Shown: one piece after another, positions 50,587-62,887 of the stretch
How positions within the stretch are numbered: the first letter of the stretch is position 1
How the letters are laid out: each line of letters starts with the position of its first letter
Source: Clostridium sp. CAG:440
GTDB taxonomy: Bacteria > Bacillota > Clostridia > TANB77 > CAG-508
NCBI GenBank assembly: GCA_000437215.1
Contig: FR898644.1
Coordinates: 229 to 64,228 of the forward strand
Length of the DNA: 64,000 nucleotides
Direction of reading: 5' to 3'
The notes under the pieces: model-generated
The model's input: the letters and a program-made list of their open reading frames with translations, nothing else
Database searches by the model: none
What the model was told of the DNA's origin: nothing
Program-made: the position numbers and the translations under genes

Positions 50587-50826
50587 CTATTCTGCCATTA
50601 CATCATCAAATAGAGGATCTGAATAAAATTCTGCCAAAGTTATATTAAATGCTTCACATATATGCAAAACCGTATCTGACCTTAAATTTTTGGTATCACC
50701 ATTCATAAAATCCAAAAATGTAGGTAATGATATTCCAGCAGCTTGGGTTAAAGCAAATGGTTTCTTTATATTATTTTGTTTCATTAGTTGCTTTATTCTT
50801 TTTCTTGTCGCAACGGCAAGTTGCAT
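50587..50826 (-). CDS. XRE-family HTH transcriptional regulator
   Basis: 79 aa; IKQLMKQNNIKKPFALTQAAGISLPTFLDFMNG is an HTH_3 pattern. Divergent from the radical-SAM operon and next to three palindromic operator-like sites. Confidence 0.8.
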   Translation of the reverse strand: MQLAVATRKRIKQLMKQNNIKKPFALTQAAGISLPTFLDFMNGDTKNLRSDTVLHICEAFNITLAEFYSDPLFDDVMAE

Positions 50827-50879
50827 AAAAAAACACCTTCTTTCTTTGAAAAAGTATAGCAGAATAAAAAGCTACGCAG

Positions 50880-50945
50880 TTAAGGTATTCCTTAATTTTT
50901 GGAAAAATTAAGAAATACCTTAAAAATAATTAAGAAATTCCTTAA
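50880..50945. promoter_or_regulatory. three operator-like 16-bp palindromes TTAAGR-N4-CCTTAA
   Basis: TTAAGGTATTCCTTAA 50880-50895, TTAAGAAATACCTTAA 50908-50923, TTAAGAAATTCCTTAA 50930-50945. Confidence 0.6.
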
Positions 50946-50950
50946 ATATA

Positions 50951-50979
50951 TTGAAAAAATTTGAAAAATAATGTAAAAT
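50951..50979 (+). promoter_or_regulatory. promoter of the radical-SAM/adenylase operon
   Basis: TTGAAA 50951-50956, 17-nt spacer, TGTAAAAT with -10 at 50974-50979. Lies 5 nt downstream of the third palindrome. Confidence 0.55.
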
Positions 50980-51082
50980 AATTACAGTAACAAGAACTAT
51001 TACAAGAAAACTTATATATTTTAGTATTCTCAAAAATACAAAAAATATTTTAAGTATGCAAATTTTATATGGGAGGGAGAAA

Positions 51083-52159
51083 ATGGATTATAAAATCAAA
51101 GAGTTTAACTTGCATATCACAGAACATTGTTCTGGACATTGTCCAATGTGTTATGCTACTGATGAAAAATTGCCTAGAAAACATGGAAGTATTGAAAAAC
51201 TAAAGTTAATAGTACATAATGCTGTTGCAAATGGAAAGGTCGAGCGATTTGTAATGGTAGGAGGAGATCCATGTGAACATCCAAATTTAGTTGAATTGTT
51301 AAAATTTATAAAAGACGAAGGAAAAAAATTTAATGTTAATACTAAAGCAATGGTAATATCCAATACTCATGATTATAAAGAAAATGGTAAACCAGTAGAA
51401 ATTGAAGAGATAGCAGAATATATAGATGGATTATGTTTTACAGTACATAGTGATAATGAAAAAGAACATGATAAATTCAACGGGTGTATAGGATCTTATA
51501 AACATGCTATTGAGAATATAAGTAAATATGCAAAAGTAAAAAAGAAAAATCAGGAAATTTGTATAATAATAAACTTAATGCCACAAACAGTTAATAAATT
51601 AGAAGATATAATGATTAATATTGATAAAGATTTGAATGGGTGTGTGGATGGGTTTGCAATACAAAGAATTGCACCTATAGGTAAAGCATGTGGTTCGGAA
51701 AAATATTTTATTGAACAAGAAGATGTTAACAAAGTTTTTGAAACTTGTAAAAAAATGAAAGAAGAAAAAGGATATTACTTTGAATTTGTTGATTCATTCC
51801 CGTTATGTATTGTAAATAAAAAATATTGGGATATGTTATATAAAGGAGGATGTAATTGGGGAACAGATTATTGTGCTGTATTTGCAGATGGAACAATTTC
51901 AAGATGTGCAATGTCAGAAAAGAAGTTATCAAAAAATGTAACTGAATTAGATACTCCAGAAAAATTTAAAGATTTTTGGCAAAATGATTCAGAACTTATA
52001 AAATTCAGAAACAAAGAACATTTGGATGAAAAATGTAAAAGTTGTAAATTATTAAAAGAATGTGGTGGAGGCTGCGTATTAGCAAGAAATACAGGTGATC
52101 CATATAAAATGGATCCACCATTAAAAGGACATGACTATCTTGCAAAAAGAAATAATTAA
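51083..52159 (+). CDS. radical SAM enzyme with C-terminal SPASM domain
   Basis: CSGHCPMC (CX3CX2C) near the N-terminus. CNWGTDYCAVFADGTISRC and CKSCKLLKECGGGC (CX2CX5CX3C) form the SPASM signature. ATG 51083 after GGGAGGGAG. Confidence 0.85.
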   Translation: MDYKIKEFNLHITEHCSGHCPMCYATDEKLPRKHGSIEKLKLIVHNAVANGKVERFVMVGGDPCEHPNLVELLKFIKDEGKKFNVNTKAMVISNTHDYKENGKPVEIEEIAEYIDGLCFTVHSDNEKEHDKFNGCIGSYKHAIENISKYAKVKKKNQEICIIINLMPQTVNKLEDIMINIDKDLNGCVDGFAIQRIAPIGKACGSEKYFIEQEDVNKVFETCKKMKEEKGYYFEFVDSFPLCIVNKKYWDMLYKGGCNWGTDYCAVFADGTISRCAMSEKKLSKNVTELDTPEKFKDFWQNDSELIKFRNKEHLDEKCKSCKLLKECGGGCVLARNTGDPYKMDPPLKGHDYLAKRNN

Positions 52160-61133: not shown

Positions 61134-61146
61134 ATTCAATTCCCCC

Positions 61147-62196
61147 TTAAAGTACATTATGAGAACAAGGCTTGCATAATGGTCCCATTTCTATATTGTA
61201 TTTTTTACATATTTTTTCACTTTGTTCTTTTGCCTTTATAAATAGTTGGGCATTTGGTGGGAAATTAGCTTCACCATAAGGAAATAAAGGAGATAATACA
61301 GGGTTACAACCTATTCTAGCTATTTTTTCAACTCCTTTTAATGTTTCTTCTAATGGTTCTAAACCGACAATTAACAATGATCGAACTTTATTTTTTCCAA
61401 ATACTTTTACTGCTAATTCTAAAAATTTAAGATAGTTTTCTTGTCCTATTTGAGCTTTTTCTGGACAATATTTTTTCAAACATTCAACACTATTTAATTC
61501 CATATTTATTGATAGTCCGCTAATACCAGAGTTTTTCAAAAATATTAAATATTCTTCATATTGATTTGAATCAGTATAACTTGTAAATCCTCTTGGTGTC
61601 ATCATTATATCAATATCATATTGGGAATATTTTTTTCCAAAATATTCGTACATTTTTGTTATTTTTTCAAGATCTTCAATTTTTACTGAACCACTAGAAA
61701 TTAGTATGTGTCGTACATTACTTTGAGATAAAGCTATGTTTAATGCTTGTTCAAGTCCAGAAATTGAATTGAATTCATATTTGAATTCTGTAGCATTGCA
61801 AAATTTACATTTGTTTGAACAACCACTAATTAGTTGCAAACGAACACGGTCAGTATATGTATTTGTATAGACTGTGATTTTTTTCCCTTCAATAACAATT
61901 TCATCCTTCATATAATCTGGTGGAGTTATTACTATAGTTTCTGTTACATCATTATTAGGCTCTTTGATATAAAGTTTTCCATCTTTTTCAACTAATTTAT
62001 ACTCAGAATTAGTTTCAACACCAATAGTTGCATATTGGTTTTCAAAGTGTAATGTTACTCCACTACAAGTAATATAATCGTCCATTAGCCAAATATCAGA
62101 TTGAGAATCCAATATTTTTTTGGCTTCACTAGAAATATTTATACCATGTTCTAGTAAATTGGCTTTTAAAATAAAATTCTTATCCATATAATCCAA
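61147..62196 (-). CDS. radical SAM enzyme with about 115-aa N-terminal extra domain
   Basis: LISGCSNKCKFCNA (CX3CX2C) at about residue 125. ISSGS, GLSINMEL. C-terminal CKPCSHN. Confidence 0.75.
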   Translation of the reverse strand: MDYMDKNFILKANLLEHGINISSEAKKILDSQSDIWLMDDYITCSGVTLHFENQYATIGVETNSEYKLVEKDGKLYIKEPNNDVTETIVITPPDYMKDEIVIEGKKITVYTNTYTDRVRLQLISGCSNKCKFCNATEFKYEFNSISGLEQALNIALSQSNVRHILISSGSVKIEDLEKITKMYEYFGKKYSQYDIDIMMTPRGFTSYTDSNQYEEYLIFLKNSGISGLSINMELNSVECLKKYCPEKAQIGQENYLKFLELAVKVFGKNKVRSLLIVGLEPLEETLKGVEKIARIGCNPVLSPLFPYGEANFPPNAQLFIKAKEQSEKICKKYNIEMGPLCKPCSHNVL

Positions 62197-62222
62197 ATCC
62201 TTCCTTTTTATAATATACCAGA

Positions 62223-62328
62223 ATTATACAAAAAAACAGCGAAATTGTCAAATTCTATGGGGAGTTTATGAAATTTTTTAAGGAATTCCTTAAAAAGTAT
62301 TTACAAATAAAGGAAAAGAATGTAAAAT
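62223..62328. promoter_or_regulatory. divergent promoter region with a perfect palindrome TTAAGGAATTCCTTAA
   Basis: Minus-strand TTGACA (62251-62246), 17-nt spacer, TATAAT (62228-62223) for the rSAM/ATP-grasp operon. Palindrome at 62278-62293. Plus-strand TTTACA 62300-62305, 17-nt spacer, TGTAAAAT (-10 at 62323-62328). Confidence 0.6.
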
Positions 62329-62359
62329 AGGTGTATATATTGTGAAATGGAGAAGAAAA

Positions 62360-62887
62360 ATGGAAGAAAAAAGAATTATAAATATAAAAGAAAGTGCTAA
62401 AAATATTTTGAAAAATATTCAGATAGATGTCAGCTGTGGTGATACAGAATTAATAACATTGTTACAAAAGATCGAAAAAGAAAATATAAATAATGATGAA
62501 ATAGACTTACTAGAAAGAACTGTGAAAAACATTGAAAATTATTTTGAAACAAAAAGAAAAATGCAAATCGAAGTTAATGATTATGAGTATTTAAAGAAAA
62601 TTGCTGAAATTTTAAGAACTCAAAAAATCAGGATAGAAGATAATGTGATTTGTGGACAACCTGTTTTTAAAGTTCTATTAGGTGAATCAGGTGAAAATGA
62701 AGTTTATTATTTTATTACAAGAGATGGAGCAAAGAACTTTATAGAAACACATTCAACAATGCTTAAAGAAAAAGACATACAAATAGATGATGAGGATGAA
62801 CGAAGAAAAAGCAATTTAATGCAAGTAAGCATTAATAAAAATTTAGAGTTCGGAAAAATAATAGATATAATAAAACGAAATTACTAA
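62360..62887 (+). CDS. hypothetical protein
   Basis: ATG 62360 (MEEKRIINIK). 175 aa, no recognisable family. Transcribed from the palindrome-associated promoter. Confidence 0.4.
   Translation: MEEKRIINIKESAKNILKNIQIDVSCGDTELITLLQKIEKENINNDEIDLLERTVKNIENYFETKRKMQIEVNDYEYLKKIAEILRTQKIRIEDNVICGQPVFKVLLGESGENEVYYFITRDGAKNFIETHSTMLKEKDIQIDDEDERRKSNLMQVSINKNLEFGKIIDIIKRNY

Follow-up and report, generated by a model that had tools for sequence, protein, structure and literature searches.

In the 64,000-nucleotide stretch of Clostridium sp. CAG:440 analysed here (contig FR898644.1; hereafter the window), the gene of a small regulator, XRE79, borders a 12-kb island of enzyme genes whose divergent promoter regions carry copies of a 16-bp palindrome. 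XRE79 (79 aa; 50587–50826, minus strand) is a member of the XRE/HTH_26 (Cro/C1-type) family both by profile (Pfam PF13443, 42.8 bits against a cutoff of 22, E = 6e-11) and by fold. Its AlphaFold2 (AF2) model (pLDDT 88; helices 3–17, 23–30, 34–41, 50–59, 64–68 and 71–78) predicts a five-helix XRE domain with a helix-turn-helix, and all top fold matches are XRE domains (DdrO-N, ClgR, C.BclI and C.Esp1396I at TM-scores of 0.66–0.79, with P22 C2 and 434 Cro also listed). The nearest solved relatives in a PDB search are remote (Lp1 prophage protein 11, E = 4e-4, and DdrO). Gut metagenomes hold 57 clusters of homologues at 66–99% identity, and one variant occurs on more than 1000 contigs. Downstream of the gene, and convergent with it, lie a 59-aa open reading frame (ORF) without a match and a gene for a metallo-beta-lactamase-fold hydrolase.

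All five palindromes described in the original prediction are present, four as exact copies of TTAAGR-N4-CCTTAA and one as a near copy, and all of them fall in the three divergent promoter regions where it had placed them. Between XRE79 and a five-gene cargo operon of radical S-adenosylmethionine (rSAM) and adenylate-forming enzymes lie the putative operators O1 (the proximal operator; 50880–50895, TTAAGGTATTCCTTAA, 23.7 bits), O2 (50908–50923, TTAAGAAATACCTTAA, 19.1 bits) and O3 (at the cargo-operon promoter; 50930–50945, TTAAGAAATTCCTTAA, 22.5 bits), each of them exact. The fourth exact copy, a perfect palindrome and the putative operator of the promoter P181 (62278–62293, TTAAGGAATTCCTTAA, 23.4 bits), lies between an rSAM/ATP-grasp operon and the gene of a 175-aa protein; the weaker, operator-like site (58293–58308, TTAAGGAAAACCTTGA, one mismatch, CCTTGA, 15.4 bits) lies between pepD and an ABC-F gene. 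O1 and O2 together make up a 44-bp hyper-palindrome (50880–50923; inverted repeat I11 of the repeat finder, 95% complementary), and O3 follows 22 bp farther along, in an upstream-of-−35 position. Contexts of XRE79 were compared in 3 + 3 + 3 metagenomic places, 80 species-representative genomes and five further places, which are cited below by L numbers; the centre-to-centre spacing of O1 and O2, 28 bp, recurs in L008, L009, L231 and L233.

The claimed geometry holds as well: in a promoter scan of the window, the sites lie 5–6 nt upstream of, or overlap, a promoter-like −35. On the plus strand, P_rSAM (50951–50979, TTGAAA-17-TAAAAT) begins 5 nt past the 50930 site and has a counterpart in the sister species L011 (TTGATA-17-TAAAAT); P181 (62300–62328, TTTACA-17-TAAAAT) begins 6 nt past the 62278 site and is kept in L008, L013, L014, L026 and L032; and the ABC-F promoter (TTGACA-17-TATGAT) has its −35 (TTGACA, 58305–58310) overlapped by the 58293 site. 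On the minus strand, the XRE79 promoter consists of an extended −10 (TGcTATACT, 50853–50861) without a recognisable −35, 21 nt from O1; with the start placed 7 nt after the −10, the O1 centre falls at about −41.5 of the inferred transcription start. The rSAM/ATP-grasp promoter (62223–62251, minus strand, TTGACA-17-TATAAT) matches 12 of 12 consensus positions, and its −35 begins 26 nt from the 62278 palindrome, which puts the site centre near −69.5. The shared −10 context proposed for two of the promoters is a real likeness but not an identity (GAAAAATAATGTAAAATA vs. GAAAAGAATGTAAAATA), and the exact pattern given earlier matches only at 62313. Neither the 97-nt leader nor the other island spacers gave an Rfam match at E <= 0.1.

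With at most one mismatch, the motif yields 11 strand-hits in the window against 1.71 ± 1.51 expected from 100 dinucleotide-preserving shuffles, none of which reaches 11, and the only such match outside the island, at 7114, is a poor one. A weight matrix built from 75 sites at orthologous loci of other genomes, with this window left out, gives 4.4 bits at the next best position of the 64 kb after the five sites; simulated sequence produces 0.16 matches of at least 14 bits per 64 kb. The exact 16-mer occurs in at least 120 stretches of metagenome contigs, mostly from unrelated organisms and with a median G+C of 39%. Only three among the stretches listed carried an XRE79 orthologue, and in each the motif lies 141–158 nt upstream of the gene, a result that fits the proposed link but adds little to it. 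A literature search found the 16-mer motif in no searchable paper.

The palindrome and its putative binder across species

The motif accompanies XRE79 from species to species. In 27 of the 29 species loci with an XRE79 relative at least 62% identical (L011–L038 and L046), 1–3 sites occur with at most one mismatch, almost all of them between −60 and −190 of the XRE79 start codon; some 45 loci with more distant relatives have no motif, bar one unrelated match in L048. Across 28 orthologous loci, all but one of the 53 matches are found upstream of XRE79 at no more than 260 bp from the gene (52 in 5,945 bp of upstream zone vs. 1 in 417,715 bp of flanks). The lone flank match (L001/L012, at −1736) lies 6 nt upstream of a promoter, TTGACT-17-TATAAC, that heads a divergent rSAM/Dph6-like/rSAM/MetRS operon. 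The proximal site ends exactly 21 nt before the extended −10 (TGnTATAAT or TGcTATACT) in 28 of 31 loci, even though the sequence between the two diverges among loci. Neighbouring genes vary widely among the motif loci, the sole constant partner of the motif being XRE79, and further metagenomic contexts carry the motif too, irrespective of the genes nearby.

Protein and operator also vary together. The palindrome-linked XRE79 proteins, whose putative operator has the consensus aTTAAGGAATTCCTTAAt, all keep A-G-[IVL]-[SA]-L-P-T...D-T-K-[NH]-L-R, whereas relatives at 58–60% identity have S-N-T-L...E-L-[IL]-K in helix 2-3, and the repeat upstream of their genes is another one (TTTCGGTT...); in a few proteins with the substitution N47H the motif has drifted (TAAGGAAAAACTTA). 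Motif co-occurrence in ~30 species, fixed promoter spacing and protein–operator co-variation thus back the original choice of the 79-aa XRE protein, which very probably is the protein that binds the palindromes. A second XRE protein of 85 aa is encoded in the regulatory arm (62927–63184, minus strand; HTH_3 and HTH_19 matches). It is 100% identical in L008, where XRE79 is only 76% identical, and most motif-bearing loci have no homologue of it; it is not the candidate binder.

The XRE79 switch comes in two layouts. In class B (this window, L008, L010, L011, L013, L014, L026, L032, L229, L231 and L233), O1 marks the promoter of the regulator gene itself and a second palindrome, 27–29 bp off, lies 5–7 nt upstream of an outward TT[GT]A[ACT][AT]-17-TAAAAT promoter, with TG usually preceding; the O3-like geometry, operator then −35, is found in more than 10 loci. 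In class A (L015, L017–L025, L027–L030, L034–L038 and L046), the two sites are joined by a third perfect palindrome that starts 1 nt past the outward −10 and lies over the transcription start. The outward class A gene encodes a hypervariable protein of 370–660 aa with a conserved prepilin-like N-terminus (KGITLIALVVTIVILLILA) and a C-terminal domain that is entirely different in each species. This divergent gene lies on the opposite strand, ~200 nt upstream of XRE79 (L015, L017–L030, L034–L038), and the flanks of class A loci are core genes, for instance those of MutS, a GH18 enzyme, FtsX-like permeases and histidine kinases.

In L001 (8253–8300 and ~9870–9950), inverted repeats of ~36 bp (ttggtcaattaaaaaagtaaattc) adjoin two operator copies and enclose a 1.6-kb segment with an HTH_38 gene and a 181-aa gene, which suggests an inversion or insertion that parted O2 from O1. 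In L229/L230 (1–9735), an XRE79 orthologue (82% identical) lies beside a phage-like replication/recombination module (ERF, SSB, Gp3-like, primase) and next to the gene of an XRE protein of 85 aa, so that the switch is not limited to conjugative elements.

The conjugative element and the repeated cassette

The island lies within a larger mobile element, a context that the original prediction missed. From ~16.5 kb on, the window belongs to an integrative conjugative element (ICE) of ~56 kb, which interrupts a D-Ala-D-Ala carboxypeptidase gene (dac) and runs ~9 kb beyond the window end. Its conjugation genes lie between 16.7 and 48 kb, and its genes in the window encode an HTH_36 protein, a sortase, a SpaA/thioester adhesin, a primase, a TraG/VirD4 coupling protein, a VirB4-like ATPase (TraC/DUF87), an NlpC/P60 hydrolase, RadC, two DNA methylases, a NikA-like protein and a MobA/VirD2 relaxase (PF03432), after which come XRE79, the island and an arm opened by the 175-aa gene. 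In syntenic contigs, this arm goes on with a LysR regulator, an rSAM-receiver protein, a sigma-70 region-4-like protein and an HTH_16 protein, and it ends in two large serine recombinases that here lie just outside the window. The element combines conjugation machinery, site-specific recombinases (in the syntenic contigs) and a disrupted target gene.

Its left end (16509–16540) abuts a 5'-truncated Peptidase_S11 gene (15738–16508, Pfam profile positions 111–238). The sequence 16514–16540 (AATCATAGACTGTACAATTTAGACA) is the reverse complement of that after the recombinases in L104, where the missing N-terminal carboxypeptidase piece follows the element end (19375–19968), and both ends carry the inverted repeat TGTCTAAATTGTACAGTCTATGATT. 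Because the left end at ~16.5 kb matches the recombinase-side end, the whole 56 kb is one element, and the island is its accessory module. We also considered, and rejected, the arm from the 175-aa gene to the recombinases as a separate element integrating at the palindrome: the recombinase-side end lies in cotJC or dac and has a different inverted repeat. The cotJC case is that of a sister element with recombinases of 520 and 507 aa, inserted in this spore-coat gene in L099, L101–L103 and L106–L108 (at ~19360–19800), the cotJA-cotJB-cotJC' part being in inverted orientation in L108. Such an insertion recalls the excisable intervening elements of sporulation genes; a search of the window for cotJ genes found none. 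In L105 (19400–20327), the flank right after the element end is carboxypeptidase sequence of ~48% G+C, so that either the element also occurs in a host of higher G+C or the contig is chimeric.

The 62278 site belongs to the conserved backbone promoter of the regulatory/recombination arm and not to the island; its homologue in L008, L010 and L013 is the operator that separates XRE79 from the 175-aa gene. The 175-aa protein itself (62360–62887, plus strand) has no known domain and is the usual divergent partner of XRE79; in L008 it is 84% identical and lies directly opposite XRE79. It has no Pfam, PHROG or PADLOC match, and none of its 82 homologues has a Pfam domain; in its AF2 model (pLDDT 59), only the N-terminal helical half is confident. 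Farther along the arm, directly after a 108-aa gene, lies an inverted repeat (63925–63976; 23-nt arms, 91% complementary, 6-nt loop), probably a terminator or another protein-binding site.

Operator and outward promoter recur as a unit. Two plus-strand copies of a cassette (50930–50980 on the left, 62278–62329 on the right) form direct repeats that bracket 11.3 kb of cargo. The windows 50930–50990 and 62278–62340 are identical in 47 of 64 aligned columns, a score equalled by ~0.05% of random window segments, and the two cassettes also emerge independently from the repeat finder, as a direct repeat of 47 nt (family D2). In related elements, the arrangement palindrome-N5-7-(−35)-N17-TAAAAT heads at least five unrelated cargo operons. 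L231 and L232 share the same backbone (NikA, relaxase, methylase, two small ORFs, XRE79) with different cargo, an outward operon of GATase, aminotransferase, rSAM, ATP-grasp and ABC importer genes; the cargo of L233 is a NUDIX/APH/PHP/AdoHcyase set. Relative to L008, the window has 11.3 kb inserted between two cassette copies, and when L008, L009 and the window are compared, homology between contexts stops precisely at the palindrome. We read this break as the mark of recombination inside the conserved cassette rather than of a dedicated integration site. The same junction is still present in L092, the far end of which looks chimeric.

Predicted targets and competing explanations

We propose that an XRE79 dimer would bind each 16-bp palindrome. 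The ancestral unit may have been a back-to-back two-promoter switch, with O1 at the regulator's extended −10 promoter without a −35 and a second operator 5–7 nt upstream of an outward TTnAnA-17-TAAAAT promoter that would drive whatever cargo follows. Since the outward operator–promoter cassette is present twice, one protein is predicted to control several promoters; an operator recurring at promoters 7 and 11 kb away would wire these to the same protein. A switch of two promoters, XRE79 and its operators, with cassette-borne targets would best explain the sites together with their specificity, conservation and fixed geometry, and we give this reading a probability of roughly 0.75.

The original prediction had tied genes on both strands across 12 kb into one regulon, and this claim survives in part. 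XRE79 would control its own gene, the five-gene rSAM/adenylase/GNAT operon and the 175-aa gene and, less certainly, ABC-F. The strong predicted targets are thus the XRE79 promoter (O1 and O2), P_rSAM (O3) and P181 (the 62278 site); the O3–promoter unit is kept in L011, where O2 and O3 are fused, and the unit of the 62278 site and P181 is conserved in eight lineages. ABC-F, through the 58293 site, is a plausible but weaker candidate, and in the island variant of L099 it is simply the next gene of the operon, without a promoter or site of its own. The claim does not extend to pepD, which is dead, and the rSAM/ATP-grasp operon, with a perfect consensus promoter of its own, is at most a possible target.

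Several observations weigh against the proposed switch. The assignment of XRE79 to the operator is wholly comparative. The ABC-F site is eroded in the sister species L011 (two mismatches, TTAAGGAAAAACTTGA), and the rSAM/ATP-grasp operon and pepD each have a separate consensus promoter, 26–37 nt from the closest palindrome. Most other genomes show strictly local sites and no distal regulon, and in this element we found no site in the conjugation module (16.5–50 kb, none above 4.4 bits) or in the arm up to the recombinases; XRE79 would therefore not be the element's master repressor through this motif. The class B loci, this window included, have no operator over the outward −10 or start, which is unusual for simple repression, and the near-consensus outward promoters are unusual for activator-dependent ones.

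The sign of control is accordingly no more than a guess. On balance we favour XRE79 as an autoregulated repressor of the outward promoters: repression is the usual behaviour of small XRE proteins, class A has an operator over the outward transcription start, and the outward promoters are near consensus. More tentatively, it may be an activator like the C proteins or lambda CI, given that O1 lies at an invariant −41.5 on a promoter without a −35, a geometry shared by lambda PRM and class II activation, and that the whole-length fold resembles the controller proteins of restriction–modification (R-M) systems (TMq 0.72–0.79).

Other explanations of the same data were weighed against the proposed switch. 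The matches might be AT-rich palindromes that arose by chance, the genome having only ~27% G+C and the exact 16-mer turning up by chance in unrelated metagenomes, yet no shuffle of the 100 equals the observed count, the weight-matrix scores leave a gap between 15.4 and 4.4 bits, and in other species the upstream zones and flanks differ by 52 matches to 1, so that this explanation is effectively refuted. The presence of a second XRE gene 650 bp from the 62278 site raises the question of another binder (the 85-aa protein, the element's sigma-70 region-4-like protein or a host factor), with the proximity of XRE79 incidental. We regard this as very improbable, as the motif tracks XRE79 rather than the 85-aa protein, is lost where the recognition helix of XRE79 differs and keeps a fixed distance to the XRE79 promoter. 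Slightly less credible still is that the palindromes are primarily recombination sites (attachment-like, or hot spots of cargo exchange) and not operators. Context homology does break exactly at the palindrome, direct repeats containing it bracket the cargo and the inverted repeats of L001 adjoin two operator copies; the real ends of the element, however, lie in dac or cotJC and have a different inverted repeat that lacks the palindrome, the fixed −35/−10 offsets and the co-variation with a DNA-binding protein indicate transcription, and ordinary homologous recombination would be expected to leave breakpoints at a conserved cassette of 50 bp.

A less remote alternative, though an unlikely one, accepts the operators and questions their reach. 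Only the 50880–50945 cluster would work, and the 62278 and 58293 sites would be relics of cassette duplication or recombination, with no island-wide regulon. Sites are almost exclusively local in other genomes, the 62278 copy is explicable by descent from the XRE79/175-aa intergenic region (as in L008 and L013), and the 58293 site is degenerate and decaying in L011. Yet the 62278 site is a perfect palindrome of 23.4 bits that keeps the 6-nt distance to its −35 conserved in eight other lineages, a diffusible dimer produced 11 kb off on the same element would bind it, and the scores fall directly from 15.4 to 4.4 bits after the five sites.

If the switch is real, a further and speculative extension, which we consider rather doubtful, is that the ~50-bp cassette is a standard recombination junction for cargo modules, wiring new clusters to the resident sensor-less XRE switch, which would act as a C-protein-like timer that sets cargo on or off after conjugative entry into a naive cell. 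The cargo so timed would here be a pathway of rSAM, adenylase and ATP-grasp enzymes together with the ribosome-protection gene ABC-F, possibly a translation-targeting antibiotic and its immunity gene; clusters at other loci include extra tRNA synthetase genes or hypervariable pilin-like proteins.

Known counterparts and the content of the island

The switch is conventional in kind and reveals no new regulatory principle. Lambdoid CI/Cro switches (lambda, 434, P22 C2) likewise have a small dimer of XRE/Cro-C1 fold and several palindromic operators between divergent promoters, and lambda OR2 is centred near −42 at PRM, the regulator's own promoter. Unlike them, XRE79 comes without a second antagonistic regulator or a C-terminal oligomerisation/cleavage domain; in the window no operator covers the outward promoter core, and the output is ICE cargo, not lysis–lysogeny. 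The C proteins of R-M systems (C.Esp1396I, C.BclI, C.AhdI) are also of ~77–79 aa and share the five-helix fold over their whole length (TMq 0.72–0.79). They bind tandem palindromic operators at or just upstream of their own −35 and serve as sensor-less autoregulators, switching in a concentration-dependent way after transfer to a new host. XRE79 differs in sequence (10–18% identity), in its main output, which is the divergent promoter, and in its operator, TTAAGG-N4-CCTTAA, which is unrelated to the C-box (GACT...AGTC type); no restriction gene was found downstream of it. With neither a restriction gene nor a C-box, XRE79 is not a C protein.

Among regulators of mobile elements, ImmR of ICEBs1 is an autoregulated, ICE-borne XRE protein whose divergent promoter region has multiple sites. 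It is larger, is paired with the ImmA protease next to int and controls Pxis and conjugation genes. We found no peptidase domain in the 175-aa protein or in the products of genes next to XRE79, and without a protease or sites at excision and conjugation genes the module is not of the ImmR/ImmA type. CylR2 of the Enterococcus faecalis cytolysin system, an XRE protein of ~66 aa, controls a divergent biosynthetic operon by way of an inverted repeat at the operon promoter; its site overlaps the −35, and it acts with the membrane protein CylR1. No CylR1-like partner of XRE79 was found, and the PDB search detected no sequence match to CylR2. Some conjugative transposons of Clostridioides difficile use a serine recombinase. 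The CTn1, CTn5 and CTn7 families of that species are modular ICEs (conjugation, accessory and recombination modules) with variable accessory regions that hold Xre-family regulators and ABC proteins (PMC3383454). The ICE described here differs from these in an operator–promoter cassette and regulator that are not known to have been described, the 16-mer being absent from the searchable literature, and the portable cassette bracketing swappable ICE cargo appears mildly novel.

These comparisons would give a widespread regulator of uncultured human-gut Clostridia an operator, a promoter architecture and a target list. They also recast the 12-kb rSAM/adenylate-forming/ATP-grasp block as ICE cargo under predicted dedicated control, with other enzyme sets in sister elements. 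Such cassettes may be of use in mining mobile biosynthetic or resistance modules and as portable expression switches for low-G+C Firmicutes.

The cargo operon (51083–56656, plus strand, gaps of at most 19 nt; Pfam and NCBIfam matches) runs in the order rSAM/SPASM, two PaaK-like adenylate-forming enzymes, RaSEA-like rSAM (203 bits against a cutoff of 212) and GNAT, and its proteins are 97–99% identical in L011. The two PaaK-like (F390-synthetase-like) genes (52169–54909) are a tandem duplication at ~78–80% protein identity; the island variant of L099 (557–1924) has a single copy. The next gene, pepD (beta-Ala-His dipeptidase; 56680–58190, minus strand), needs a correction: it is a pseudogene split over three reading frames (TIGR01893 positions 5–205, 205–382 and 393–477), which although broken keeps a perfect TTGACA-17-TATAAT promoter with TG. 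The same fragments occur in L011, L091 and many metagenomic contigs; since the sister species and so many contigs share them, the pseudogene is an old one that is stably inherited. The ABC-F ribosomal-protection-like ATPase (58365–60125, plus strand; NF000355, 468 bits against a cutoff of 380) and an operon of ATP-grasp and variant rSAM genes (60186–62187, minus strand, by family matches) complete the island. As a known defence system it was rejected, PADLOC giving only generic rSAM (pVip-like, 51 bits) and ABC-ATPase matches, and its nucleotide sequence found no match among deposited plasmid and phage records.

The island variant of L099 (1–8600) lacks GNAT and pepD; in it ABC-F directly follows the RaSEA-like gene, and it gains genes for a histidine-racemase-like (CntK_N) and a HemK-like methyltransferase protein; it looks like one coherent biosynthetic cluster, with the ribosome-protection gene as possible self-immunity. 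Other XRE79 orthologues adjoin rSAM and ATP-grasp clusters with an extra aminoacyl-tRNA synthetase gene, MetRS-like, LeuRS-like or SerRS (L001, 3814–8083; L005, 1–9661 and 12153–15499; L008, 10608–12843). An extra synthetase copy is a typical pattern of self-resistance to synthetase-inhibiting natural products.

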